Shown piece after piece: positions 3,060 through 58,490 of a DNA stretch of 64,000 nucleotides. The notes under the pieces are model-generated. The model searched no databases and was not told where the DNA came from. It was given only the letters and a program-made list of their open reading frames with translations. The DNA comes from a virus, in the UHGV virus genome UHGV-0134778; one strand, written 5' to 3'. Positions within the stretch are counted from its first letter, which is position 1. Each line of letters begins with the position of its first letter. Position numbers and translations under genes: made by a program.

Positions 3060-3593
3060 ATGACTTGTGCTAGAAAACCTGACGAACAACGTAACGCCTA
3101 TGATGAATATGTGACACCAGAGTGGTGTGCAGAAGGGTTGTATGACCTCATTCCGTTCCCAGAAGATTGGACCTATTTGGAGCCTTGCAGGAATAGCGCC
3201 TCAGGTGTGTTCTACTCCCGTATGCCGTTAGGATCTGCATGGGGAGAAATCCAAGAAGGTGTTGACTATCTGAATACAGAATACAACCATGTTGACTGTA
3301 TTATCACCAACCCGCCGTACAGCCTGGCTCGTGAGTTTGTGGACAAGGCGTTGAAAGATGCCGACGTAGTTATTATGCTTTTGCGTCTTAATTTTCTGGA
3401 AAGCAAGGCCAGATTTGAATGGTGGCTTGATAATGCCCCTACCACTGTGATCACAATATCTAAGCGTCCATCATTCCAATCGAATGGCAGAACTGACGGG
3501 CAAGCATATGCATATTTTGTGTGGGACAAGAAGAACCGTTTAGACCTACCGCCATTTATGTGGTTGGCACCTCCGGAGGCAGACTTGAAATGA
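3060..3593 (+). CDS. phage Dam-family N6-adenine DNA methyltransferase
   Basis: DEYVTPEW near the N-terminus, EPCRNSA and catalytic ITNPPYS are typical of the small phage Dam-type (NPPY) methyltransferases. Confidence 0.6.
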   Translation: MTCARKPDEQRNAYDEYVTPEWCAEGLYDLIPFPEDWTYLEPCRNSASGVFYSRMPLGSAWGEIQEGVDYLNTEYNHVDCIITNPPYSLAREFVDKALKDADVVIMLLRLNFLESKARFEWWLDNAPTTVITISKRPSFQSNGRTDGQAYAYFVWDKKNRLDLPPFMWLAPPEADLK

Positions 3594-3874
3594 AAATGAG
3601 TGCTAAGGACAAGTTGCACCAGTTAGCGCTAAAACGTCCTGTAACTCTCCCTGACGAGCTTAACTCCATTTATGATGCGATTGTAGGGGAGATACAAAAT
3701 AAGGCGTTAGCAGGCTTTCTGGGATGCGGATTTTCGATAAATCTTCCATCACACCTCTCAGACTACTTACCACACATCGTTGGGGATTTGAGGGCAGGAG
3801 GTCTGCAGGTGGATGTTGTTGGCATCTCCCCGGAGAAAAATAACACAGTTGCCTACTTGACAGTGACCTGGTAG
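3590..3874 (+). CDS. hypothetical protein
   Basis: In-frame ATG at 3590 overlaps the upstream stop (ATGA coupling). The track ORF begins at 3521 but that part overlaps the methyltransferase gene. Confidence 0.45.
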   Translation: MKMSAKDKLHQLALKRPVTLPDELNSIYDAIVGEIQNKALAGFLGCGFSINLPSHLSDYLPHIVGDLRAGGLQVDVVGISPEKNNTVAYLTVTW

Positions 3875-3909
3875 TAGTGTATTTTGTTTTCAACAAGAGG
3901 GGGTCATCT

Positions 3910-4149
3910 ATGTATAAGTCATTTTCAATCTACTCAAGACAGACAAAACACTACACAGAGATTCTGATCACTCAGAAAAAATCTGTGGAAGGTGAGTGGG
4001 AATATCATCATAAAATGTTGCGTCCAGACTGGGTTTTTGACAGGCTTATTGCTATGATCCCTCTTGGAGAAGTATACCCTCTGACAGGTCATAGGGATGC
4101 TTGGGATTTAATTGACTATATAGATTCATTTAAGGAGCCTAGATTATGA
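3910..4149 (+). CDS. hypothetical protein
   Basis: ATG 3910 preceded by AGAGGGGG RBS; the longer track ORF starts at 3877. Confidence 0.4.
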   Translation: MYKSFSIYSRQTKHYTEILITQKKSVEGEWEYHHKMLRPDWVFDRLIAMIPLGEVYPLTGHRDAWDLIDYIDSFKEPRL

Positions 4150-4544
4150 AGATTGAGATTACTGAAGAAGGTAAGAAAGTCTCTGGTAACTATGCAACAG
4201 TTATCCGTGATGTAATGTTCGAAGTCACTAAGATTGGCACATCCAAGGTTGGTCAAACGGTGAGTGTGCAAGGTAATATCACCTCAGGAGAGAAGATATT
4301 CATCGTAATAAAAGGCCAGGACCCTGTAGAAGGGACAGTTGGACGTGGCGGATACCTGTGTATCTCTGAAGAGCCTCGCATGCTAGTTGCTGATAACTCT
4401 ACAGGTAAAAAGCGGGTATGTAACACGGACGAGGTGATGATTATCTATCCAGTCAACCCGGATGATCCGGCAACATGGATTGTGGGAAATGAAATCTTCT
4501 CTTTAGAAGAGTTATCCTTCCCAGCTCCGCGATCTGTTCAGTAA
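4146..4544 (+). CDS. hypothetical protein
   Basis: 132-aa ORF; start overlaps the upstream stop (ATGA); RBS AAGGAG. Confidence 0.5.
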   Translation: MKIEITEEGKKVSGNYATVIRDVMFEVTKIGTSKVGQTVSVQGNITSGEKIFIVIKGQDPVEGTVGRGGYLCISEEPRMLVADNSTGKKRVCNTDEVMIIYPVNPDDPATWIVGNEIFSLEELSFPAPRSVQ

Positions 4545-9870: not shown

Positions 9871-10140
9871 ATGAAAATTAAATTATTCAAAACTGAGCTG
9901 GCAGACAAAAACTGCGGACTGGTTGAAGGCATGATCGTTGAAGCACAACCAGTTGACTACATGAAGGTGGTTCGTGATGCCCTGGGTGAAGGTTTTGATC
10001 TGATGGAGCCAGCTCTGCGAGAAGATGTCATCGAGATGGCTAAAAAGCACACACCGGAAGGTTTGGTAGTGTTTGTTGCACCAGGTAACGGGGAAGAGTT
10101 GATTGTAACTCCGGATGTGTATGAGGTTGTAGAAGAGTAA
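9871..10140 (+). CDS. small acidic protein, EVVEE-tail paralogue family
   Basis: MKIKLFK... ending ...YEVVEE; RBS GAGGAG. Confidence 0.5.
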   Translation: MKIKLFKTELADKNCGLVEGMIVEAQPVDYMKVVRDALGEGFDLMEPALREDVIEMAKKHTPEGLVVFVAPGNGEELIVTPDVYEVVEE

Positions 10141-45444: not shown

Positions 45445-46811
45445 ACGTCCCCCTTTTCTGCTCTAGTTTCAAAATCTTTCCTGACTTTCTCGTCTAAGCC
45501 AGGGAAAGTTGTATTATAAAACTCTACGACTCTCGGGTCAACAATAATATCCACCTCTCTTAATGGACGCAACAAGTTTATTCCTTGTATCGTCTTAACC
45601 CGACTCAAGGCAACATACGTCATTCCGGGAGAGAAAGCTCCGTTCTTTCCGAGGTCTAGGTTGTAACAATCTAACGTAAGTCCTTGACTTTTATGCGATG
45701 TTACTGCGTACCCAGATTTCAAAGGAAGTTGCTCATAAGACCCGATCACAACCCTCTCTATGAACTTCTCCATCTTCCTTTCGGCAATATTGTACCTCTG
45801 GGAAGGTTTGTACTCGTTATTCTCCCACAATCTTGGCTCAATTTCAACCTGTGTTCCGTCTTCTAGCTCAACTACTACGGATTTGGTCTTGAATTTTACC
45901 ACTGTGGCACGTGTCCCGTTAACATAATACGGAACTTTGTGAGTAGGGTCAACATCGTTTGAGGTTATCATAACCTTCATCCCTATCTTCAGCCTCATTT
46001 CCTGCTCCACAGGTAGTGTGGAAGGGAACTTACCTTTCATTTTACCAATGTAGGTCTTCTCTGGGGCCTTGATGGCATCATAGAAACGTCTGTTCACCTC
46101 CTCTGCTTGCTTATTGGTGGCACAGATGGTCAAGGCATCTGTTGGGACACCACCATGATAGCAACGAGTGTTAAGCTCTGCTACAACCTCTTTTATGCGA
46201 CGACCTTCACGAACACAGTTCAACATTGTGGCGAAGCGAACAGATTCCTGACGGAACTGGTCTACTAAGGCTATGTTGTGAAGATTAAGATCCTCCCAAG
46301 ATTCTGTATAGCAACACAGGTCTGTGTGGTAGAAGTTGAAGTAGGCTTCTTTCTCCATAGAAGAGACAACTGGAGGTGCTTGGTAGAAATCTCCAAACAA
46401 TAACACCTGAATGCCTCCGAAAGGTTTGTCATTTTTCCGAAGAAAGCGGAGTTTTCTATCCATCTCTATGAACTTGTCAGCACGGATCATAGAGATTTCA
46501 TCGATAATCAGGATGGTAAATGCCTTGCTTTTCAGAGGCTTTGCTGTTTTTGCCCTTATTGCTGTCCAGTCTGACTCCATGCTCACACCTGCGGCAAGAT
46601 CGAAAGTTCGGTGCGCTGTTGCTCCATTAACGTTTAAAGCGGCTACCCCTGTCGGGGCAACCGTTATGCAAGAGTCTCCATACATGGACTGGATCATGTT
46701 GATAAGATATGTCTTCCCGGTTCCACCAGGTCCACTTACGAAGACATTCTCACCGCTCATGATTGCAACAAGGGCAGCATCTGTGCCTACATCGTACTGC
46801 CCTTTTTCCAT
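45441..46811 (-). CDS. Dda/RecD/Pif1-like superfamily 1 DNA helicase
   Basis: Walker A VSGPGGTGKTY, Walker B ILIIDEISM and C-terminal SF1 helicase motifs; 456 aa, similar in size to T4 Dda. Confidence 0.8.
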   Translation of the reverse strand: MEKGQYDVGTDAALVAIMSGENVFVSGPGGTGKTYLINMIQSMYGDSCITVAPTGVAALNVNGATAHRTFDLAAGVSMESDWTAIRAKTAKPLKSKAFTILIIDEISMIRADKFIEMDRKLRFLRKNDKPFGGIQVLLFGDFYQAPPVVSSMEKEAYFNFYHTDLCCYTESWEDLNLHNIALVDQFRQESVRFATMLNCVREGRRIKEVVAELNTRCYHGGVPTDALTICATNKQAEEVNRRFYDAIKAPEKTYIGKMKGKFPSTLPVEQEMRLKIGMKVMITSNDVDPTHKVPYYVNGTRATVVKFKTKSVVVELEDGTQVEIEPRLWENNEYKPSQRYNIAERKMEKFIERVVIGSYEQLPLKSGYAVTSHKSQGLTLDCYNLDLGKNGAFSPGMTYVALSRVKTIQGINLLRPLREVDIIVDPRVVEFYNTTFPGLDEKVRKDFETRAEKGDV

Positions 46812-48052
46812 TACGCCTCCTCGTAGATAATGTCGATAGTATTACCGTCGCGGTCAACCACGTACTCAATTGGGTCGCCATCTTTGCGCGATTCTGGAGC
46901 TACTACGATTTCGTAGCGGCATGCACGGCACTTGGCGCTGTTGTGTTGGTAAGGTACACTAACTACATCGGCAGGGTCAACCATAACCGTCATCACAGTT
47001 CCGTAGCTCTTTGCATACTCTTTGCTGGCACAGTGCAGGCCATAAGAGCATGCAGCTTCCGGATCATCCTCTACAAAGTTACGAGGCATGGATACAAAAG
47101 CCCCCTGGTATTGTGGGACTTTACCACTGTGCCAATCCACCCACTTGTCGCCGTTAAACTGAACCCCTTTGTAGCAAATGATTCGACCATCTTCTGCAAT
47201 CTGAATGTCGTTTGCCTGCATAAAATCGTAGAGCATGTTTACAGATTTTGCAGAAGGATTGCGTAGCAGGCGAACGAGGAATTTCACATAGCGGTCATCC
47301 AGTGTTCCGTCTGCATAATCTTTCTCAATTTTCTTTGCAATGGTGGATCGCATCTCTACACCGTAGTAGTAGAGCTTACCATCTTTCATGATCAGGTTGT
47401 CTGCAAGTGTGGTGAACTCATTCTTGCGTTCCAGCCAGACAAGGATTTCACCAATTGCCTCGTCATATTCCTGAACAGAGATATGGTCGAAGACTTTCTG
47501 GTAAACTTCCTCACTTTCACTGCGGCGAATTTCAAAAATACCTTCGTTGCAGGTGATCTGGAGGAGTTCCCCGCAAATAACCACCAAAGGCTCGATGCTT
47601 CGGGTCTGTTGCTGAGACACACTGCTCACCACCTCCAGCACCGGGTCTTTTACTTCTACTAAAGGTTCTTCTGACTTGATTGCTACCCCAGTGAACCCTA
47701 CACCGTGAACAACACACAGTGGATATACCACACCCCAACGTTTAACGGAACCTTCTCCTAAATCTAAGATCATGGCGTACTTACCGTTATCTTCCAGCCC
47801 ATATCGAAATAAACGGGCCTCTTCACGGGTTTCAAAATCCTCACGGGTGTAGCAGACGCTGTCACGGTCAGGATCGAACAACTCTGGGGCACCTACTGCC
47901 AGTGTCCAGGTTGTGTTACCTTTCTCAATAGCGCATGTGAAACCCTTCTTCTCAAGCTCTGCACGGCGGTCACGTGCTTCTTTACGAGTTTTGAAATGTT
48001 CGTAGATGAAAATCATCTTGGTCTCCTTATTTGATGTTATTCTTTGTATCAA
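46811..48052 (-). CDS. rIIB: rIIB-like protein
   Basis: C-terminal block FLVRLLRNPSAKSVNMLYDFMQANDIQIAEDG...HSGK...MPRNFVEDD...YGLHCASKEY...VVSVPYQHNSAKCRACRYE resembles my recollection of T4 rIIB; lies directly downstream of rIIA on the same strand. Confidence 0.65.
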   Translation of the reverse strand: MIQRITSNKETKMIFIYEHFKTRKEARDRRAELEKKGFTCAIEKGNTTWTLAVGAPELFDPDRDSVCYTREDFETREEARLFRYGLEDNGKYAMILDLGEGSVKRWGVVYPLCVVHGVGFTGVAIKSEEPLVEVKDPVLEVVSSVSQQQTRSIEPLVVICGELLQITCNEGIFEIRRSESEEVYQKVFDHISVQEYDEAIGEILVWLERKNEFTTLADNLIMKDGKLYYYGVEMRSTIAKKIEKDYADGTLDDRYVKFLVRLLRNPSAKSVNMLYDFMQANDIQIAEDGRIICYKGVQFNGDKWVDWHSGKVPQYQGAFVSMPRNFVEDDPEAACSYGLHCASKEYAKSYGTVMTVMVDPADVVSVPYQHNSAKCRACRYEIVVAPESRKDGDPIEYVVDRDGNTIDIIYEEA

Positions 48053-50009
48053 TCAGTTCACGGTATTCAATCATAGCAGGAGTGTCCCAATATTTCAAGC
48101 CTACATGCTTCAAAAGTGGATATTTCTTTTCCAATCTTGCAATATAGGCCTTCCCGCACTTAACCCGGTTGGCGATTAAGATTTTGGCACGATGATTTAG
48201 CTCACCGTACTTCCACGTGGTGCTACCTTCCCACTTGTGGAAATGTGGCCGATAACTTCCAAAATCCTGCATGGGGATAATTTTACCTAACTGTCTGTAC
48301 AGGCTGTCATATGAAGTTTCATTTGCTGCGCGAGTTAGTAAGAATTTCCAAGCATCCTCTTTCAACAAATGTTCCACATTCTTCTCTGTAACATATTGGC
48401 AATCAGGATCAGTCCAAAGCAGACGAGATTCCGACACCAGGTACAGATCTTCCCCTTCAGGAATCTGGAGTGCCGCACGCACACGGTCATAATCTTGCTG
48501 GTAGATGTTGCTCATCTGCCCTAGCCAACAACTTCCGCGTTGGATATCCCCCTCATACGGTATGCAGTGCTTAATCTTCCTGAACTCTGCCTTAGTAATA
48601 CGCTCACGCCGGAAGTAACCATCCTTCTCAAGTTTTTTAACCCAATAGCCTGGTTCGTAACGGGTTTTGGTTTCACCTTTCTTCGTAGGTCGGCGTGGAA
48701 GCTCCGATAACAATTTGACCGTATCTGCAAAAAACGGATGGTGTGCCGCCTCTTTAAACTCTTTCACCAGATCCGTGTTACGGCAATAGAAAACGTTGCG
48801 TCCGGTAATCTCGCTTAAGTAGTTACACTTATTCCGGTTATATTTGCCGTCTCCGTCGTTAAATACTAAATAAACTCCCCGTAAGAATTCTACCTTTCCG
48901 TAGCAGGCGTAACCTATGCGGCCTTTATTTAAGCCGCCAGCGAAGATCTCGCAGTCCCCCAAATTTCCTAGCCCTGTTTCTTCCCAGCGGTCATACATAA
49001 AATTCTTACCGAAGATGTGCCCGAACACTCCACTGTTCTTCATCATCTCGCGTGCTTCTGAGGATGTTTTTGCTGTCTCCAGTTCTGCAACAACTTCTGC
49101 TCCACGAAGGCGAATGCCTTCTTTGACAAAAGCTTCCAAACGCTCTTGGAATCCACCATCGTCGTGACCTTCTATGGTCCATTCACGCCCTGGGTTAATA
49201 TTGCAATCTCCGATAGGGATCTCTACACAAATTGCAGGATAATCTATTAGTGTCTCCAGGAACTTAGAACGGTAAGGTTGGTGACCCATTACCACACGAC
49301 TCTCGTCAGAGCTGGTATAACCCTTCAGGATGGTCATCTTCCAACCATCTTTTTCATAATAATACTGCGCCTCTACTTTGTCTCCCTCCAGCATCTTGCT
49401 CGTCATCGGGTCGGTGACAGTGAACGGAAATTTTGCATAGCGCAGGCATGATGCAATAGCGGTGCGATATTTCAGAACATGCTCTTTCTTAACATGAAAC
49501 TGAACTTTTACCCCGTTGTGCTCTTCAGTCTTCCGCTCACGGATCTTGGTGACATTTGGGATACCCTGGTCCAAGAACAATAGGTATGTGCTTTCCACAC
49601 CGTTGTGCACACTGATTACATCGAAAGTGTCCACCATGCTGAACGGGGCCTTTGAACCAACACCTTTATTGCCTACCAGAGCGTTGCTGTTGCGCTTGGT
49701 CGACTCACCGAGGTTCATGAAAGTGTTACGGACCATCTCTTCTGACATGCCTAATCCAACGTCCTGCACAAAGAAGTATGGTTCAAGGTCTGTAGGAGAG
49801 TGAATGATGATCGGTACATCACCTCGTCCAGACTCAACATGTGAGTCCACAGCATTGAAGATCGGTTCACGGCAGCTTGCCAGTACCTTATCTTCATAAA
49901 TCCCTTTGATGATTAGCCCAAAAGTCTCTTTGTTCAGAGAAATTGATCCCCTGGTTACCTCCATATTCCCAGTTAGCACCGCTTTAGTTTCATTGCTGTT
50001 TACAATCAT
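48027..50009 (-). CDS. rIIA: rIIA-like protein (GHKL-type ATPase fold)
   Basis: LASCREPIFNAVDSH, FFVQDVGLGMS and VGNKGVGSKAPFSMVDTF correspond to the conserved N-terminal ATPase-like blocks recalled from T4 rIIA. Confidence 0.8.
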   Translation of the reverse strand: MIVNSNETKAVLTGNMEVTRGSISLNKETFGLIIKGIYEDKVLASCREPIFNAVDSHVESGRGDVPIIIHSPTDLEPYFFVQDVGLGMSEEMVRNTFMNLGESTKRNSNALVGNKGVGSKAPFSMVDTFDVISVHNGVESTYLLFLDQGIPNVTKIRERKTEEHNGVKVQFHVKKEHVLKYRTAIASCLRYAKFPFTVTDPMTSKMLEGDKVEAQYYYEKDGWKMTILKGYTSSDESRVVMGHQPYRSKFLETLIDYPAICVEIPIGDCNINPGREWTIEGHDDGGFQERLEAFVKEGIRLRGAEVVAELETAKTSSEAREMMKNSGVFGHIFGKNFMYDRWEETGLGNLGDCEIFAGGLNKGRIGYACYGKVEFLRGVYLVFNDGDGKYNRNKCNYLSEITGRNVFYCRNTDLVKEFKEAAHHPFFADTVKLLSELPRRPTKKGETKTRYEPGYWVKKLEKDGYFRRERITKAEFRKIKHCIPYEGDIQRGSCWLGQMSNIYQQDYDRVRAALQIPEGEDLYLVSESRLLWTDPDCQYVTEKNVEHLLKEDAWKFLLTRAANETSYDSLYRQLGKIIPMQDFGSYRPHFHKWEGSTTWKYGELNHRAKILIANRVKCGKAYIARLEKKYPLLKHVGLKYWDTPAMIEYRELIDTKNNIK

Positions 50010-50506
50010 TTATTGCGCTCCTTGTAGTAGATATGGCTCCCGAATTGAGCTGTCCTCTGCATCTTTTTTGCCCATTTCGGTCGTACTTTTGTTGTATGGT
50101 AGTGTGTTGCTCCGCCTGTTATATCCATAGCCATGTATGCAACATGGTTGTTATTATAGACCTTTAGAAGCATCTTTGCAAGACTTTTAGCGTGATCCCA
50201 TGAATCTTTTTCTGTCACCTTAAAAGTTTTGCCGTGGTTTGTCCACGAAAACTGGTTAGGTTGGTAGACAATCTTTCTTATAGTGTCTGGGTATTTGGGG
50301 TGAGATTTCCTGTTTAGTGTGGCAAATCCGGATGCCAGCATACCCATCGTGCCATCCCCTCTAGCCTCCCTGTAGATATTGCATGCTAGAATGTTTTCCT
50401 TAGTATCCGACGGCTTGCAAGTGTGATATACTTTTTGTTTTGGTGCTGCAACAACAGGCAGCGATAAAAATGCGCTCAAAATAATAGCAAAGATTTTAAT
50501 TTTCAC
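50006..50506 (-). CDS. secreted SleB-type cell wall hydrolase (candidate endolysin)
   Basis: Signal peptide MKIKIFAIILSAFLSLPVVAAP, then NIYREARGDG...LNR...IVYQPNQFSW as in the SleB/Hydrolase_2 family. Confidence 0.6.
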   Translation of the reverse strand: MKIKIFAIILSAFLSLPVVAAPKQKVYHTCKPSDTKENILACNIYREARGDGTMGMLASGFATLNRKSHPKYPDTIRKIVYQPNQFSWTNHGKTFKVTEKDSWDHAKSLAKMLLKVYNNNHVAYMAMDITGGATHYHTTKVRPKWAKKMQRTAQFGSHIYYKERNK

Positions 50507-50555
50507 AATAGCTCCAAATAGAAAATCCCCGCCGAAGCGGGGTGTGTCTTAGAAA

Positions 50556-50936
50556 TTAATCGTAGTGTGCCAAAATCTCTCCATCGTTGCAAGTCCCCTC
50601 TACGAAGTTGTGAAGATTCATGCATTCATCTTGATAGAAGAATTTACCGCTTTTCAGCCGTAGACCAAACAACTCCGCATCTCCACGATGGCAAGCCTCT
50701 ACAAGTTCATAGATTTCATACGGTAATTCCCCATCGTCATGGAAGAACCCCGCTTTATCGTTGACATAGATGAAGAAATAGTCACTGCTGTCGCAAGCGT
50801 CCAGTATTTTAAACCAGATTTCATCCACATCTTTTTCTCGGATATCGATCACACAAGCGGAGCTGCATTCGTACTCCTTCTCCGGCTCCTCGGTCAATAC
50901 CACCAAGTAGTTTCCCCGCTTACCTACTTTAGCCAT
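50556..50936 (-). CDS. hypothetical acidic protein
   Basis: 126-aa ORF. Confidence 0.5.
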   Translation of the reverse strand: MAKVGKRGNYLVVLTEEPEKEYECSSACVIDIREKDVDEIWFKILDACDSSDYFFIYVNDKAGFFHDDGELPYEIYELVEACHRGDAELFGLRLKSGKFFYQDECMNLHNFVEGTCNDGEILAHYD

Positions 50937-50945
50937 ACAACCTCC

Positions 50946-52130
50946 TCAAGCTTTAGCTAAAATGGCGCTAAACTCTTCACCAAACTCTTTTACAATCTTC
51001 ATCAGGTTTGGGTATGCTTTGATCAGCTGAGCAACGATCTTGTCCCTGCCTTTACCAATAAGTAAGGCATTTCCTAAGGCGTTAGGTTTCATCATCGCCA
51101 TAAAGACTGAGAATACAAAGTCTCGGTTCTCATCCTTGAAATTTTCCCAAAGGAAATCAAGGAAGTTTGCCACACAGCTGACGAGATCTTCGTCGGAGAT
51201 ACTTGCATTTTCCATCATATTACGAATAGCGATACAACCTTCAGACCCCAGAATCCACAAGATGTCTGGCTGCTTAGGACCTACATATTCTTTGCAGCCT
51301 CCTGCCATAATCCGACCGATTTCTGGCAAGTTTCGTTTCTTGGTGTGGTAGGTCCAAATTTCTACCGCTGCAGTGTGACCAATTGCACCTTGTAGAAGGA
51401 CACGGGCCATAGCGTCAGAAATAATACCGCTGTCAAAATCGTGCAGGATGTCAGATGCAGCAACCCAAGATCGCGGTGTAGCAAAAGATGGACAATTAAT
51501 CTCAGCCATGGCCTCATAATTATCGATGGCTGATGGGACTCTTTTCAGATATCCAATTACCGAGGAGTGCACCCCATTAAGGAATGCATAGTCCTCAATA
51601 AACACCTCTGCACTGCTTGTAACTTCTACAATGATAAAGCGGTTAGCTAGAGGAGCTTCGAGCGCCGAAAGAACAGCACCGTCTGTAGCACGGTTACCTG
51701 CAGCTACAAAAACAGAGCCCTTAGGAAATGCATAGGTGCCGCACTTGTGGTCGAGCATAATTTGCATTGCAACCTTCTGCAGGTAGTTATCTGCATGAGT
51801 AAGCTCATCTAGAAAGATAATTCCGCTCCAGTCCGGATCTGCAGGCCAAAATTCTGGAATTGCAAACACTGTGCGTGTAGTCCCATCCGACTCTACAGGG
51901 ATAGGTAGCCCAGATAAGTCAGCAGGATCTTTATCTGACAACCGCACGTCAACCAGGTTGTCATCTCGCTCGCCGAACATATTATCAGCAATCTGCTTCA
52001 TCACCTGGCTCTTCCCCACGCCCATCGGTCCTAAAATCAGGACAGATCGGTTATGACGCTGGGCAAATTGAATAATAGCTGGCAACTCGCGGACAGTGAT
52101 TTGACCACTTTCGAATACGTTTCTTGACAT
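50946..52130 (-). CDS. MoxR-like AAA+ ATPase (AAA_5 type)
   Basis: Walker A ILGPMGVGKSQV, Walker B IIFLDELTHAD and overall MoxR/CobS-like layout; 394 aa. Confidence 0.8.
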   Translation of the reverse strand: MSRNVFESGQITVRELPAIIQFAQRHNRSVLILGPMGVGKSQVMKQIADNMFGERDDNLVDVRLSDKDPADLSGLPIPVESDGTTRTVFAIPEFWPADPDWSGIIFLDELTHADNYLQKVAMQIMLDHKCGTYAFPKGSVFVAAGNRATDGAVLSALEAPLANRFIIVEVTSSAEVFIEDYAFLNGVHSSVIGYLKRVPSAIDNYEAMAEINCPSFATPRSWVAASDILHDFDSGIISDAMARVLLQGAIGHTAAVEIWTYHTKKRNLPEIGRIMAGGCKEYVGPKQPDILWILGSEGCIAIRNMMENASISDEDLVSCVANFLDFLWENFKDENRDFVFSVFMAMMKPNALGNALLIGKGRDKIVAQLIKAYPNLMKIVKEFGEEFSAILAKA

Positions 52131-52399
52131 TAGTAAAAGTCCTCTACTTGTGTGTAAGTGTTTTCAAAGTTTTCCAAAACAGACATCACATCGGATCTGT
52201 CAATATCATACGCAACTCTCCAGCCATATGCAACCCTTTCTGCTGTTGCCTCTTCTGGCGCTAGTCGTCTGCTGGCATAAAAGAGTGTTGGAGTACACTT
52301 TCTTGCTTGCCCTCTAACTTTCCCATAATAATATCTGTGAATATCTTTGTCAAAATTTAATTCTTTTTCTGCACGAAGTTCGTACTGCTGGTATAACAT
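52130..52399 (-). CDS. hypothetical protein
   Basis: 89 aa; coupled to the ATPase gene. Confidence 0.5.
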   Translation of the reverse strand: MLYQQYELRAEKELNFDKDIHRYYYGKVRGQARKCTPTLFYASRRLAPEEATAERVAYGWRVAYDIDRSDVMSVLENFENTYTQVEDFY

Positions 52400-52443
52400 C
52401 TCTACTGCTCCTTAAGCAGCATCCTTGCCGCCATCCCTACCCA

Positions 52444-52824
52444 CTAAAATGCAGTCCGAATCCAGACAAGGTTCTTATCTGCCCAATCATAGAGGCAAGT
52501 CATTGCACTATTGAATTGCTCACACGGAGGATAATCTTCTTCCATCTTGCGCATAGCAGAGCCTTGTGGGTAAAGCTCCCGTGCTGCAAACCACGCGTCG
52601 TAGTCATCAACGGTATCGAAGTAGTATACAACATCCTCCAACTCAGGATCGAACTTTGAACTATCAGGATCCAGCTGTTCAGGGAACTTGGAGCGTAACT
52701 TGCCAGCCACAATACTTGCCAACTCGCTAACATGTTTGTTGTCCCACTCTACCAGTTTCCCGTCTTCAGTTATGCGTCCTAACCACTGATCATGAAGGTC
52801 AACTGTTGTCTTCCACTGGGCCAT
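52444..52824 (-). CDS. hypothetical protein
   Basis: 126-aa ORF. Confidence 0.5.
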   Translation of the reverse strand: MAQWKTTVDLHDQWLGRITEDGKLVEWDNKHVSELASIVAGKLRSKFPEQLDPDSSKFDPELEDVVYYFDTVDDYDAWFAARELYPQGSAMRKMEEDYPPCEQFNSAMTCLYDWADKNLVWIRTAF

Positions 52825-52826
52825 TA

Positions 52827-53084
52827 TCAGTCTACCTCTTCTTCTCGTTGCAGTTCAAGATACCCATAGGTCTGGATATCTTCAAAGGTGTGGAACTCTC
52901 CATCTGCCGCTAAGGCACGGACAACCTGGCATAGAGTTTTATAAGGTACTTTCTCCAAACCCATATTCAGCGCAGGAAAAACCTTATCTAAGTCAACAAA
53001 ATATACAAACTGTAGCTCACCAGTTTCAAAAGGCGTATCTTCGATAAACATCTTCTCGGCATTAGTTAAGATTTGCACTTTCAT
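52827..53084 (-). CDS. hypothetical protein
   Basis: 85-aa ORF. Confidence 0.5.
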   Translation of the reverse strand: MKVQILTNAEKMFIEDTPFETGELQFVYFVDLDKVFPALNMGLEKVPYKTLCQVVRALAADGEFHTFEDIQTYGYLELQREEEVD

Positions 53085-53440
53085 TATTCTGCCTCCTCTT
53101 CTTTTTCTTCAGCATTAGTTTCAGTACCACCCCACTCTGGAGTTTCCACCTCGACAGTAAACTCACGCACTACACGGTAATTGCCCATGAAGCGCTCCAC
53201 TTCTTCAAGGCTTATGGAGAGGCCATTGGCAACCAAGTCTGCAGCACCCTTCTCTACCAGGTAGTCCAGATTGGCTTCCAAGGCTTCAGGCTCAAACCCT
53301 GTCAATGCAATCATATAACCTTCCCCTTCATCAGGGAGGGCAATACAGCCCAACTGATTTTCTTTAAAAAAGCAGTGACCATCACTATTGATTGGTTGCT
53401 CATTGCAGTAAATAGCTGCACGATAAGTAACTTTAGACAT
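53084..53440 (-). CDS. hypothetical acidic protein
   Basis: 118-aa ORF. Confidence 0.5.
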   Translation of the reverse strand: MSKVTYRAAIYCNEQPINSDGHCFFKENQLGCIALPDEGEGYMIALTGFEPEALEANLDYLVEKGAADLVANGLSISLEEVERFMGNYRVVREFTVEVETPEWGGTETNAEEKEEEAE

Positions 53441-53452
53441 TGATAGGCCTCC

Positions 53453-53731
53453 TTAGGCAACTGTCATTTTACATTCTTGAAATTTTAGCACAAGACGGTG
53501 ATTGTGTCTAGTGTCTAAAAAGATTTTTTCAACCATCAGGCACACGGTATAACCGTCTGTCTTGTTGACAACAAAATCCCCAGGGTGAGGGAGAATGTCC
53601 CCAGGATTGGGGAAACATAACCCGCTCAAGAAGGCATCATCGGTGGTGGACTTAATGGATTTCCACACACTATCTGCCTGAACATTCTCACCAACATAAT
53701 ATACACTACCACATGACTTCATCATAGTCAA
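53453..53731 (-). CDS. hypothetical protein
   Basis: 92-aa ORF. Confidence 0.5.
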   Translation of the reverse strand: MTMMKSCGSVYYVGENVQADSVWKSIKSTTDDAFLSGLCFPNPGDILPHPGDFVVNKTDGYTVCLMVEKIFLDTRHNHRLVLKFQECKMTVA

Positions 53732-54627
53732 ATCTCCGCGTAAATTAAACTGGAATCAGTATACTTCTTTAGTGGGTAAATATCCTGTCCATAGATGCCG
53801 TCATTAAACACCTCATCTACCCAAAGGCTACACTTATATCCCATCATCTCTAAAACACCCATCTCTTCTTCGGTAAACTTATCACCGCTCTTGCAAGATG
53901 TCAACACCTCATTCTGTACTCTTGCTACCTCGAAGCGATTATTGGCAATATCGCTATTGGCGATCAAATACTCACCTAAAGGGTGTGCGGCATTAAAGAT
54001 GCACAGTGGGCGGTTGACGTAATAGTCTCCCGGTGTATAAAAATTGTTGAGATCCTTCACCAGAACATTCTTATCAGTCACTTCATTTATAACATCATGC
54101 ATATCACACATCTTTATATGTTTGAGGATTCCATCCCCCATCACAAAATAAAAACTTGCTGAGACACTCTCGGCATAGATCTTACTAGATCCGTTGTAGT
54201 TGTATTTTACGCGAATGCTTACAGGGGTTTTGCCTGTCGCGTTAGCCATCATCCAAAGGAACGGAAGTTCAAACTTCTCCTCTGAGGAAACAAAAGGTGA
54301 AGTTGCCAGAGATCGGAAACCACCAGAGAAGTTGAAAGTTACAGAGCCGCTCCGGCGATATGATACCGCATATTCTACTTTTATATCGACATAGCCGTTG
54401 GAGTAAGTGTGGCCTCCATTATCCAGATATGTCCATTTATCAGATCCGGATACCAGCCTACGCTCAATAACCTTCATTACTATAGGAATTAGCGGGTTGG
54501 TACAAACCGATTTTGAAGTAGCTTTATCATCCAAAGCCTCGTAAATTGCAGAAAGGATATCACCTGCTGAGAGATTGGTTGTGATATCTTGTTTCCACCT
54601 GGTGCTAAAACTGTTAAGATTTGCCAT
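53728..54627 (-). CDS. hypothetical protein
   Basis: 299 aa; first gene of the leftward block; promoter 54668-54696 and RBS AGGAGCAC. Confidence 0.5.
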   Translation of the reverse strand: MANLNSFSTRWKQDITTNLSAGDILSAIYEALDDKATSKSVCTNPLIPIVMKVIERRLVSGSDKWTYLDNGGHTYSNGYVDIKVEYAVSYRRSGSVTFNFSGGFRSLATSPFVSSEEKFELPFLWMMANATGKTPVSIRVKYNYNGSSKIYAESVSASFYFVMGDGILKHIKMCDMHDVINEVTDKNVLVKDLNNFYTPGDYYVNRPLCIFNAAHPLGEYLIANSDIANNRFEVARVQNEVLTSCKSGDKFTEEEMGVLEMMGYKCSLWVDEVFNDGIYGQDIYPLKKYTDSSLIYAEI

Positions 54628-54667
54628 GCGTAAGTGCTCCTATGTTAGTTTTCTTTTGAATGGGTGC

Positions 54668-54696
54668 ACTATATCGTGGATTTAGAGTAAAGTCAA
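54668..54696 (-). promoter_or_regulatory. sigma70-type promoter (leftward arm of a divergent pair)
   Basis: Minus strand TTGACT (54691-54696), 17 nt, TATAGT (54668-54673). Confidence 0.55.
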
Positions 54697-54709
54697 CACG
54701 TTTTTCAGG

Positions 54710-54738
54710 TTGACATCTTCTCAGGCACTTGGTAAGAT
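54710..54738 (+). promoter_or_regulatory. sigma70-type promoter (rightward arm of a divergent pair)
   Basis: TTGACA (54710-54715), 17 nt, TAAGAT (54733-54738). Confidence 0.55.
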
Positions 54739-54769
54739 TTCTCCACCCACAGAGAACAAGAGACAACTC

Positions 54770-55759
54770 ATGAATCTTGAAAAATATTATACACCAGAAG
54801 AGTTAGAGCGCTTGCTCAAAAAATACAGACGCAAACAGAATAACGCACGGAAACGGGATATAGAGTTCAACCTGTCATGGGAAGAATATCTCCTATTTGG
54901 TAAAAAACTTTTAGGAGAGGGAGTATGCGACTATACCCTTATACCTTTCGACATGCACACAGATGAAAACGGACTGGGAAATCCTTTCTACCCATCTCTG
55001 GAGCGGATAGATGATGAAGGTCCTTATGCGGTTGATAATTGTTGTGTGGTGGGATTGAGATGCAACTCCCTAAAGGACTGCCTGGTAGATAAAAAGACCG
55101 CAGTCTTGATTAAAGACAAAACTGATCGAAAAATTGTCCAGCAGATGATGCTCCACCTGAGCGAAGAGCGTATGGAGAAATTGAAAGGTGATTACACTTT
55201 TGAAGATTTCATCTTGCAATATGGAACGGAAGAAGATAAACTAGCACTCTTTGACGAAGAATGGGAGGAAGATATGTCACCAATGCAGGATTTTAAAAAC
55301 TTCATGGCTAATCGTGGAGCCAACAAGCACATTTCTGACATTATAAACGAGCCTGCAGTAGAGGAGATTGAAGAGATGACGCAAAAGGCTTACGAAGAGG
55401 AAAAAGAGCCTCAAGTGGTCGAAGAAGAGCTTACAGAAGAGGTTCCTGCACTGCCTGACGATGTTGAGATTGCCAAAGCTTACACTTTCTATTGCCAGAC
55501 GTTCTACGATGCAGGTATGAAAGTTGATCTGTCATTCAGCCAGTTTAAGAGCACATACATTCGAAAATGTTGTGCTTTAACTGGTGAACGTCTCGGTGCC
55601 GGACTTAAACCCCTATTAGTTACCGACTGGAACAAAGGTTTCACCAAAGGTAACTTCATGGTAGTATCTCCAATCATGGAGAAGGCTATGACAGACCTTA
55701 TGAAGACCACTCGCATGACAATGACCGAGTTGGCTGGTATTTTCAAGCACGTTAAATAA
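54770..55759 (+). CDS. hypothetical protein with an internally duplicated module
   Basis: ATG 54770 lies downstream of promoter 54710-54738. Two related segments (DIEFNLSWEEYLLFGKKLLGEG and KVDLSFSQFKSTYIRKCCALTGERL). Confidence 0.5.
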   Translation: MNLEKYYTPEELERLLKKYRRKQNNARKRDIEFNLSWEEYLLFGKKLLGEGVCDYTLIPFDMHTDENGLGNPFYPSLERIDDEGPYAVDNCCVVGLRCNSLKDCLVDKKTAVLIKDKTDRKIVQQMMLHLSEERMEKLKGDYTFEDFILQYGTEEDKLALFDEEWEEDMSPMQDFKNFMANRGANKHISDIINEPAVEEIEEMTQKAYEEEKEPQVVEEELTEEVPALPDDVEIAKAYTFYCQTFYDAGMKVDLSFSQFKSTYIRKCCALTGERLGAGLKPLLVTDWNKGFTKGNFMVVSPIMEKAMTDLMKTTRMTMTELAGIFKHVK

Positions 55760-55792
55760 TGACAGGGGCCAATGGCCCCTTCTGGAGTTTTA

Positions 55793-57253
55793 ATGGATAG
55801 CAGAAGTTCAGAAATCATTACCGCACAAAAAGATGATGCCTTGCGAATGCTGCAGGCCGCTCGCATGTACCTTCTTGAAAAGCTGCCGTTTTATGGCACA
55901 CTGTTGTCAGGGTTGCAGTTCGTAGAAAACCACACATGGTGCTCCACTATGGCAACAGACCATAAACGCATCTACTACAGCCCTGAGTTCATTATGGGGT
56001 TGGCAGATGAGCGTAAAACCATTCTTAAAGCATCTCTGACTGACAAGCAGTTTGAGATGGCTGAGGTTTTCTATTCCCCAAAATCTGTGAAAGAGGTGGC
56101 CTTCCTTCTGTCACATGAGGTGGGGCATATTATCTGTGATCATCTGGTCCGTGGTAAAAGCTTTGAGCCGGAACTGTTCAATATTGCTTGTGATCACGTT
56201 ATCAACACAGGTCTTGTGGTTGACTTTAGCAAGCCTCCTTGTGTTTTCTTCCCGAAGGGGAAAAGCACTGAGTTCGTAAAAGGTAAGCCTTTTGGCTTCT
56301 TAGCTAATTGCTACTGCGACATGAAGTTTCATGGATGGATTGCTGAGAACGTCTATGCAGTTCTTGATAAACAAAGAGATCAGAATAGCGGTAAAAGTAA
56401 GAACGGTAAAGGCGAGAACTCCCAAGGAGATAAACGACAAACCGATGATCACATGAGCGGGAACGGTGGCACTAGTGATGATCTTGGAAAGGCTATGGGG
56501 TATGATCAGCCGCAACCAGTAATCAGTCAATCTGATAAAGATCAGGCCATGCAGGACTCTGGTGACATGTTGGAAGCAGCAATGCAAGCTTCAGGAGGTC
56601 GTTGCCCTGAGGCGGTGCGCGAGTTTGTCAAAAACAGAGGCAAGCCTGTAATCAACTATATAGATATTATTAAGCAACGTATGTTGTCTAAACGAAAGGC
56701 CGAGCTAACCTACAGAAAACCTGGTCGCCGATCTGGGTCTTTGACCACCACAATGCGAAAAGTTGGAGCTATAAACAAGAATCAACACATTATTGTTCCT
56801 GGTCGTAATCCGGAAAACACCATAGATATTGTAGTGGCTTTGGACGTTTCTGGATCGATCTCGCAAAGAACTTTAAAGAAAATGTTCAATGAGATCACCG
56901 GGTTGTGCAATTTGTATAAAGAGTTTAAGGTTACGATGTTCTGTTGGTCAACCGAGGTTGGAGAGGTTAAAGTATACACTCGCGGTAACATCGATGAGAT
57001 GATCAACTATGAGGTCCACTCAACATGGGGCACAACAGCCGCCTGCGTGTTCGAGTATCTGGATGCTAACATACCGAATGCAAAAGATGTCATCGTCCTT
57101 ACCGACCTCTACTTTGAGCATAACTTTGAACAAAAGGCTGTTGACAACAAGTGGAAAAAGTACGATACTTTATGGGTTCTCACCGAAGGGTATAATAAAA
57201 ATTATATCCCGAGCTTTGGGAAAACTGTGGAATTAATCGAGTATGCTAAGTAA
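55793..57253 (+). CDS. putative metallopeptidase (HExxH) plus von Willebrand factor A domain protein, DUF2201-like
   Basis: N-terminal LLSHEVGHIICDH...NIACDHVIN; C-terminal VWA with MIDAS-like DVSGSIS. Start taken at ATG 55793 after GGAG; alternative 55772. Confidence 0.65.
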   Translation: MDSRSSEIITAQKDDALRMLQAARMYLLEKLPFYGTLLSGLQFVENHTWCSTMATDHKRIYYSPEFIMGLADERKTILKASLTDKQFEMAEVFYSPKSVKEVAFLLSHEVGHIICDHLVRGKSFEPELFNIACDHVINTGLVVDFSKPPCVFFPKGKSTEFVKGKPFGFLANCYCDMKFHGWIAENVYAVLDKQRDQNSGKSKNGKGENSQGDKRQTDDHMSGNGGTSDDLGKAMGYDQPQPVISQSDKDQAMQDSGDMLEAAMQASGGRCPEAVREFVKNRGKPVINYIDIIKQRMLSKRKAELTYRKPGRRSGSLTTTMRKVGAINKNQHIIVPGRNPENTIDIVVALDVSGSISQRTLKKMFNEITGLCNLYKEFKVTMFCWSTEVGEVKVYTRGNIDEMINYEVHSTWGTTAACVFEYLDANIPNAKDVIVLTDLYFEHNFEQKAVDNKWKKYDTLWVLTEGYNKNYIPSFGKTVELIEYAK

Positions 57254-58040: not shown

Positions 58041-58490
58041 GTGTTGAGCAAACGTGAATGCGACAGCATTAGCCTGAATTCTTATAAGAAACAATGGTTT
58101 GGGGTAGAAGTTTGCCGACTACGGCTGGGCTCCTACTTGAACTTCGTCCATTATGAGAGTGACAGTCGTATCGTTTCTTATGAAGTGTTCTACACTAAGA
58201 ATACATTCGAGCTGAGACGTAAGGTGGATGGCGGGAGATCTACCGCCCAGAATAATTGGGAAACTATTCTGCCTCCAGATGTTATAGGAAGTCCCCTGAA
58301 TGTATCTGAAGATGAAAATCTTATGGTTCATGCTATGATGGGACTTGACAGCTTAGAGCTGGCGATCTATGATATGTCCATCGAAGCAGTTAAGTTGGAC
58401 TACATCGAAAACACTTTAGAGGAAGGTATCAAGAAGTTTCTCGGTGAGAAATTGAAAGCCCACTTTCATAAGGAGCTATATCTGTTATGA
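58041..58490 (+). CDS. hypothetical protein
   Basis: 149 aa; RBS AAGGAGAGAG. Confidence 0.5.
   Translation: MLSKRECDSISLNSYKKQWFGVEVCRLRLGSYLNFVHYESDSRIVSYEVFYTKNTFELRRKVDGGRSTAQNNWETILPPDVIGSPLNVSEDENLMVHAMMGLDSLELAIYDMSIEAVKLDYIENTLEEGIKKFLGEKLKAHFHKELYLL

Follow-up and report, generated by a model that had tools for sequence, protein, structure and literature searches.

NorQ-NorD and CbbQ-CbbO are the nearest systems with solved structures to the viral gene pair described here. In both, a MoxR ATPase is genetically coupled to a protein with a VWA domain whose MIDAS (the site of metal ion-dependent adhesion) is intact. In NorQ-NorD (NorQD) one VWA protein sits on the MoxR hexamer with a finger in its pore; the acidic residues that the MIDAS binds belong to the target, not to the ATPase, and ATP hydrolysis is transmitted through the VWA protein, with remodelling of the target (PMC9976466, PMC13036017). 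Our study concerns a pair with the same ATPase-VWA coupling in a 64,000-nucleotide stretch of the virus genome UHGV-0134778 (hereafter the window): a predicted MoxR-type AAA+ ATPase, and a protein that joins a predicted zincin-like HExxH domain to a VWA domain with a complete MIDAS (Table 1). NorD and CbbO, unlike this VWA protein, have no HExxH domain, and the targets of the two known systems are respiratory and carbon-fixation enzymes. The window ATPase shares 15-20% identity with NorQ and CbbQ, and its C-terminal helical region is about 130 aa longer.

Several viral pairs of this kind have been described. The phage N4 proteins gp24 (AAA ATPase) and gp25 (vWFA) have been listed without an assigned function (PMC2784036); their genes are among the 14 core genes that the 25 N4-like genomes analysed all share, and in N4 they are middle transcripts (PMC4193335). 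Iyer et al. (2021; Viruses 13:63) described a MoxR-vWA-metallopeptidase pair in group 2.2 jumbo phages, with the same two-gene architecture as in the window, and proposed a role in virion assembly and proteolytic processing by analogy with Acidianus two-tailed virus (PMC7824862). The latter, an archaeal virus, also has a MoxR and VWA pair, which is needed for tail development; its pair has no peptidase domain, and it is by description that we liken it to ours. Iyer et al. describe the pair only for jumbo phages, whereas the window comes from a 137-kb myovirus in which the pair is split and stands in a DNA-metabolism or early context. A MoxR and vWA core, sometimes with peptidase effectors, is also found in the vWA-MoxR ternary conflict systems (VMAP; Kaur et al. 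2020). GenBank records of relatives already carry the labels 'MoxR ATPase' on the one hand and 'VWA-like domain-containing protein', 'putative metallopeptidase domain' or 'metal-dependent peptidase' on the other, and other records of the focal genes are labelled 'HNH endonuclease' or 'anti-sigma factor' instead. The pair has already been recorded in annotations and in comparative genomics, and its observation in the window is correct and not new.

We propose, with a probability of roughly 0.55, that the two proteins form a two-component machine, an ATP-driven and MIDAS-targeted remodelling protease that would act early or in the middle of infection, inside the cell and not as a component of the virion. 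By analogy with NorQ-NorD and CbbQ-CbbO, the VWA protein would dock on the ring of the MoxR ATPase, presumably a hexamer, and the MIDAS metal would capture an acidic residue on a specific target protein. ATP hydrolysis would remodel this complex, and the fused peptidase would cut the target, or itself. This coupling of ATP-driven remodelling to cleavage is expected because the non-VWA part of the phage protein is a conserved HExxH domain. The module would be expressed from host-type promoters in a non-late part of the genome, beside genes of replication, nucleotide metabolism and host takeover.

The predicted ATPase

The ATPase carries the full AAA+ motif set, with Walker A, Walker B, sensor 1, arginine finger and sensor 2. 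Over 22 homologues, down to 30% identity, the G-x-G-K-S core of Walker A, the DE of Walker B, N146, R147, the arginine of LANR and the PR of FATPRSW are all invariant. Relatives at 31-35% identity carry AAA_3 and AAA_5 (seven of 22 at E<=1e-3), and the family profile, compared with the sequences in the PDB, finds midasin as its best match (8e-11); a single-sequence search of the PDB with the ATPase returned only Walker-A-level matches to ClpB and ClpC. In the AlphaFold2 (AF2) model, which has a predicted local distance difference test score (pLDDT) of 82.9, a beta-hairpin at residues 76-89 (the helix-2 insert; strands 76-81 and 84-89) comes after beta2 and before the Walker B strand; a second, short hairpin, at 129-134 (strands 129-130 and 133-134), stands ahead of the sensor-1 strand. 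Both inserts are typical of the MoxR helix-2-insert AAA+ clade. The top 15 Foldseek matches of this model in the PDB are CbbQ2 (6L1Q) and NorQ (9QH4-9QHG), several of them NorQ-NorD VWA complexes, with E from 4.5e-8 to 1.6e-6 and template modelling (TM) scores relative to the target of 0.54-0.65; MoxR CHU_0153 (2R44) is also among the matches. The first-pass annotation had called this gene MoxR/AAA_5-type, and although the direct Pfam call falls below the gathering cut-offs, we assign the product to the MoxR-type AAA+ ATPases on its motifs and predicted fold, because PHROG 1297, the AAA_3 and AAA_5 domains of its relatives, the midasin match of the profile, and the AF2 model with its nearest solved structures all point to that group.

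The predicted HExxH-VWA protein

The first-pass annotation had also read the second gene as an HExxH region followed by a C-terminal VWA domain with a MIDAS, and this reading is borne out by Pfam (family models PF13203 and PF09967): the N-terminus matches DUF2201_N (E=1.7e-28; 100.4 bits, cut-off 23.2) and the C-terminus the VWA-like DUF2201 (E=3.6e-11; 43.7 bits, cut-off 26.4). Over 22 homologues, down to 24% identity, H108, H112, the motif N-x-A-x-D-x-x-x-N and all five MIDAS residues (D351, S353, S355, T414 and D438) are invariant, and E109 of the HExxH motif and H117 are nearly so. Candidate third metal ligands are D134, which is invariant, and H117, which is invariant in an 11-sequence alignment and nearly so in the 22-sequence one. 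A single-sequence search of the PDB with this protein gave no match. The start at 55793 is favoured over an upstream ATG at 55772, because a GGAG stands 6 nt before it, the upstream ATG lies inside a GC-rich hairpin, and the homologues and the GenBank records begin at the equivalent methionine. From these matches and motifs, the product is predicted to be a zincin-like HExxH domain fused to a VWA domain with a complete MIDAS.

The likeness to NorQD and its relatives also suggests a different function, in which the pair would insert a metal cofactor into, or otherwise activate, a metalloenzyme, of the phage or of the host, that serves nucleotide metabolism, ribonucleotide reductase for example. 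The models for this are NorQD (iron into nitric oxide reductase), CbbQO (Rubisco reactivation) and the CobST and BchID chelatases, and the HExxH domain would bind metal or substrate without cleavage. The closest solved structures to the ATPase are those of these very systems, and the VWA domain is similar to NorD and BchD; enzymes of nucleotide metabolism are found repeatedly beside the pair, and rV5 encodes both an aerobic and an anaerobic ribonucleotide reductase (PMC3606486). However, the nearly invariant glutamate of the HExxH motif is the catalytic base and not a metal ligand, which points to hydrolysis. No CobN/BchH-like third subunit or conserved metalloenzyme partner is seen beside the pair (the CobN/BchH family is absent from the top 25 families of the neighbour census described below; no whole-window scan for CobN was made), and the neighbours differ between lineages. 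We judge metal insertion to be distinctly improbable.

The label 'HNH endonuclease' carried by some relatives of the VWA protein is that of PHROG 1314; PHROG 3118, to which the product of the gene directly upstream belongs, carries it too. It has been inherited by the RefSeq entry for N4 gp25 (3165-4307 of the N4 locus, L090), by FV3, by APECc02 and by others. We reject it for the window protein, in which Pfam gives DUF2201_N and DUF2201 and no HNH-like match. It is likewise rejected for the product of the gene directly upstream, in which Pfam finds nothing HNH-like and which is Srd-like instead. The label on the proteins of these two PHROGs is a propagated misannotation.

Linkage and distribution of the pair

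We anchored 80 viral loci from IMG/VR on the VWA gene and searched them with a hidden Markov model (HMM) of the ATPase. The ATPase lies within 10 kb of the VWA gene in 71 of the 80, always upstream, and these are 71 of the 76 loci that have at least 5 kb of upstream DNA; four of the nine loci with no ATPase match have less than 1.8 kb. The two genes share a strand in 62 loci, usually as direct neighbours with a median gap of about 115 nt. The other nine loci are divergent, with the ATPase 3.5-5.1 kb away, and they are the closest relatives of the window (43-62% identity), whose own two genes lie on opposite strands with 3,662 nt between them. In the next clade out (CR3-like, 35% identity) the genes are adjacent. 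Because only the nine closest relatives are divergent and the next clade out has the adjacent order, the split layout is, on this sequence comparison, a derived rearrangement of an ancestral ATPase-to-VWA operon that the Vequintavirinae-like clade has retained stably. The ancestral operon would have been broken up, leaving one gene in each arm of a divergent, early promoter region. Of the two outcomes named as refuting the proposal of a phage-adapted MoxR-VWA module in the window, domain searches without support for a VWA/MIDAS fold and lack of co-occurrence in related phages, neither was obtained, and the proposal is supported as far as the pair is concerned; for the role in lysis timing that was suggested along with it, we found nothing in support beyond the neighbouring rIIA/B and SleB-like genes, and we reject it.

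In tblastn searches, 813 phage records match the ATPase and 679 match the VWA protein (separate record counts), and they belong to the same phage groups. Both occur in Vequintavirinae and their relatives, CR3-like phages, N4-like podoviruses, jumbo phages of about 350 kb that infect Escherichia, Salmonella, Erwinia and Yersinia, Aeromonas and Vibrio phages, and the cyanophage S-TIM5. The two genes also stand side by side in distant contigs 150-185 kb long, in another contig, of 578 kb, and in a Saccharofermentans metagenome-assembled genome (MAG).

Among the tblastn matches are proteins labelled 'N4 gp24-like' and 'N4 gp25-like', and the N4 proteins themselves match the family HMMs (gp24, E=4.7e-58; gp25, E=6.1e-55). 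By these matches the window pair is homologous to gp24/gp25 of N4. N4 gp25 has the same HExxH and DxSxS architecture as the window VWA protein, and the N4 genes are, like those of the window, non-late and of unassigned function. The pair is adjacent on one strand in N4 and in most other phages, whereas in the window its members are 3.66 kb apart on opposite strands with divergent promoters between them, and the window proteins are longer than their N4 counterparts (394 against 352 aa for gp24, and 486 against 380 aa for gp25). The window (46811-52130, reverse strand) and N4 (L090, 1939-14277) also share a gene order, MoxR-like ATPase, rIIA and rIIB, then DNA helicase, with other genes in between. 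This common block of an rV5-like myovirus and the podovirus N4 suggests an old, mobile block of early or middle genes.

Two of the distant loci deserve separate mention. In the 578-kb contig, which is of megaphage size, the pair lies inside a proteostasis cluster (L087, 1592-8591) of HSP20, ClpS, the ATPase, the DUF2201 protein and ClpP, and in this ATPase about 110 aa are inserted after the helix-2-insert region and before Walker B. In the Saccharofermentans sp. MAG (JAZRYF010000023.1), the gene after the ATPase and DUF2201 genes encodes a membrane protein that Pfam matches faintly to M50, and the flanking genes encode a SNF2-type helicase of 1076 aa, a metallophosphatase, a Ser/Thr kinase and a PP2C phosphatase; this locus could be a conflict island or a prophage remnant. 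When contigs were searched with the single MAG protein, the sole match was the protein itself.

A gene for a phrog_15894-like protein of about 200-250 aa is present in 49 of the 89 loci retrieved, on the strand of the VWA gene and 70-2700 nt downstream of it (among L018-L086 and L003-L006, for example L003 8970-9578 and L058 11228-11992). It is absent from the window and from L007-L017, and we reject it as a universal third component of the system; it is probably a matter of lineage synteny and not a third subunit.

Genomic context and proposed role

The 6.3-kb region that contains the pair is 98.7% identical to Escherichia phage vB_EcoM-ECP26, and 122 phage records match it at 93-99% identity, nearly all of them rV5/FV3-like Vequintaviruses, to which the window belongs by this similarity. 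In rV5, genes 27-81 form the late transcription unit, from which the units 10-1-... and 11-26 are distinct, and neither protein of the pair is listed in the mass spectrometry of the virion (PMC3606486). A census of the 146 nearest larger open reading frames (ORFs) at 56 dereplicated loci is dominated by one syntenic marine lineage, so that its counts are not independent. It finds as recurrent neighbours a 5'-3' exonuclease, ThyX, thymidylate synthase, phosphatases, a nucleotidyltransferase, RNA and DNA ligase, DHFR and homing endonucleases. The 25 top-ranking families of either library searched include none for capsid, portal, tail or terminase. A non-late intracellular role is favoured because the promoters are of host type, the transcription units are non-late, the N4 homologues are of the middle class, the neighbours belong to DNA metabolism and, in the 578-kb contig, the pair keeps company with ClpS, ClpP and HSP20 genes. 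Action inside the infected cell before or during DNA replication is most likely.

This context bears on the proposal of Iyer et al. (2021), under which the pair would be a chaperone and protease of virion assembly that folds or assembles head or tail parts and trims structural proteins. It was published for the same architecture in the group 2.2 jumbo phages (PMC7824862), and MoxR-VWA pairs are generally maturation chaperones. Moreover, some N4-like roseophages encode mid-expressed virion proteins near the gp24/25 homologues (PMC4193335), and a PHROG label of 'tail protein' falls on the ORF at 58041..58490, 0.8 kb downstream of the VWA gene. Yet the pair stands outside the late morphogenesis unit of rV5 (genes 27-81) and its products are not among the listed virion proteins, the N4 homologues are middle genes, and the neighbours at the 56 loci serve DNA and nucleotide metabolism and not capsid, portal, tail or terminase functions. 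The podoviruses, myoviruses and jumbo phages that carry the pair also have unrelated tail machines, so that a common structural substrate is hard to name. A role in assembly is in our view unlikely. What the window adds is this argument from context against a purely structural role; it offers no other new handle on function.

The early setting and the sigma-70-type promoters could also suit a protease of counter-defence or host takeover, whose MIDAS would hold a host defence component, a nucleoid protein or a sigma factor; this is a special case of the remodelling protease that we favour, with the class of target named. An Srd-like anti-sigma decoy and rIIA/B are encoded nearby, some loci have an Acb1 gene directed against the cyclic-oligonucleotide-based anti-phage signalling system (CBASS), and the setting of the bacterial MAG homologue, beside a SNF2 helicase, a kinase and a PP2C phosphatase, looks like a conflict island. 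Anti-defence genes are, however, usually patchy and fast-evolving, whereas this pair is core in all N4-like phages and its catalytic sites are conserved over very distant phages and hosts. Scans of both proteins and two neighbours with NCBIfam and PADLOC return only marginal P-loop matches, which in PADLOC are to the ATPase, with nothing for the VWA protein. In comparison with the vWA-MoxR ternary systems, the window pair has no VMAP-type third component, no PADLOC hits and a sub-threshold match to bpMoxR (15.7 against 27 bits). We consider counter-defence the least probable of the explanations weighed here.

Several points, the mid-expressed structural genes of N4-like phages and the skewed neighbour census among them, weigh against the remodelling protease that we favour. 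Direct comparison of the ATPase with Pfam gives 16.9 bits for AAA_5 (cut-off 22), 15.7 for bpMoxR (cut-off 27) and no AAA_3. The N-terminal domain of the VWA protein has no significant solved relative, only motif-level matches to M48 at E 0.4-0.9, so that it is the conserved HExxH from which peptidase activity is predicted, and one homologue (P0027) lacks the glutamate of that motif. Five loci with full flanks have no ATPase within 10 kb of the VWA gene. The position of a gene says little about the timing of its expression, and the literature that we searched holds no experimental work on any member of the family, DUF2201 and N4 gp24/gp25 included.

With these points set beside the rest, the conservation of three active sites and a context that is consistently outside the structural genes suggest that the remodelling protease, or whatever the pair may be, represents a genuine enzymatic step in infection, and probably an important one. 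Its genes are among the few that every N4-like phage keeps, and the pair recurs in several unrelated groups of large virulent phages, and its carriers include phages for therapy and for biocontrol of E. coli O157. A narrower version of our proposal, which we advance tentatively and hold to be rather doubtful, is that the pair is an ATP-dependent, MIDAS-targeted protease and not an assembly chaperone, acting in early to mid-infection on one host or replication-associated protein. If so, it would be a core function common to N4-like podoviruses, rV5-like myoviruses, jumbo phages and abundant marine phages, and a new class of viral regulated protease in which the logic of AAA+ proteases is built from MoxR, VWA and zincin parts. 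The solved NorQ-NorD structures provide a concrete template for functional tests.

Promoters and neighbouring genes

The coordinates of both focal genes, their motifs and the features between them are collected in Table 1. Both focal ORFs lie where the first-pass annotation had placed them, as do the six reverse-strand ORFs and the forward-strand gene that separate them, and a sigma-70-like site is predicted at each position of the divergent promoter pair that it had marked.

Table 1. Features of the ATPase-VWA locus, in window coordinates.
Feature	Position	Strand	Basis or remark
MoxR-like (CbbQ/NorQ-like) AAA+ ATPase, predicted, 394 aa, N4 gp24 homologue	50946..52130	-	PHROG 1297 'ATPase' at 2.4e-110
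ATPase FATPRSW, R220	around 51471-51473	-	motif coordinates
ATPase LANR arginine R164	51639-51641	-	motif coordinates
ATPase sensor-1 N146	51693-51695	-	motif coordinates
ATPase Walker B DE (IIFLDE)	51804-51809	-	motif coordinates
ATPase Walker A GPMGVGKS	52008-52031	-	motif coordinates
Six lineage-specific genes, no supported function	52130..54627	-	PHROGs 13164, 6318, 13124, 12908, 12847, 12338
Sigma-70-like site TTGACT-17-TATAGT	54668..54696	-	10/12 positions; faces leftward operon ending with ATPase, rIIA, rIIB
Sigma-70-like site TTGACA-17-TG-TAAGAT, extended -10	54710..54738	+	10/12 positions; faces rightward operon (Srd-like, then VWA)
Srd-like protein, rV5 gp11 homologue	54770..55759	+	PHROG 3118 at 3e-111; directly upstream of VWA gene
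GC-rich hairpin AGGGGCCATTGGCCCCT	55764..55780	.	between Srd-like gene and VWA gene
DUF2201_N (zincin-like HExxH) + DUF2201 VWA fusion, predicted, 486 aa, N4 gp25 homologue	55793..57253	+	Pfam
HEVGH	56114-56128	+	VWA-protein motif
NIACDHVIN	56180-56206	+	VWA-protein motif
MIDAS DVSGS	56843-56857	+	VWA-protein motif
MIDAS T414	57032-57034	+	VWA-protein residue
MIDAS D438	57104-57106	+	VWA-protein residue

Sigma-70-like sites number 21 over the region against 14 expected, and the two promoter sites are backed more by their position than by this number. Bidirectional promoters are described between rV5 genes 10 and 11, of which gene 11 encodes the Srd homologue (Kropinski 2013; PMC3606486). In L007, a related locus with only 61% identity in protein sequence, a hairpin stands at the same position (9969-9988), though its stem and loop differ in sequence; the element may serve attenuation or RNA stability and thereby set the expression of the VWA gene.

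The six lineage-specific genes make up the DNA that separates the ATPase and VWA genes in the Vequintavirinae-like clade, and the layout is the same in L007. One of them, an 89-aa ORF (52130..52399, reverse strand) that abuts the ATPase gene, is itself labelled 'ATPase' in PHROG 13164 and in several GenBank records; we reject this label as spurious, the sequence having no P-loop, and it seems to have been acquired by adjacency. The product of the Srd-like gene has weaker matches to the Srd and sigma70-decoy PHROGs 1400 and 4592, and is a putative anti-sigma decoy encoded by the first gene of the rightward unit; we treat it as context, with no implied membership of the module.

On the other side of the ATPase, the SleB-like hydrolase (Pfam Hydrolase_2, E=2.1e-19) and, after it, rIIA and rIIB are in the same block, as had been claimed; the hydrolase does not directly adjoin the ATPase, for gene 50556..50936 intervenes. 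The hydrolase ORF (50006-50506, reverse strand) has a GTG start and encodes 166 aa with a signal-peptide-like N-terminus, MKIKIFAIILSAFLSLPVVAAP. Its GenBank relatives are annotated at only 113 aa from an internal ATG, by which the signal peptide is lost and the start of Hydrolase_2 clipped.

Downstream of the VWA gene, the 149-aa ORF at 58041-58490 (forward strand) matches PHROG 6790 'tail protein' at 5.8e-57; the label is unverified, and the ORF sits in the non-late unit amid small genes with no known function. Lastly, 16 records named 'Campylobacter phage' (MG065644-MG065690) match the full 6.3 kb at about 94% identity, with C. jejuni as the stated host in 15 of them, and this host label looks doubtful.

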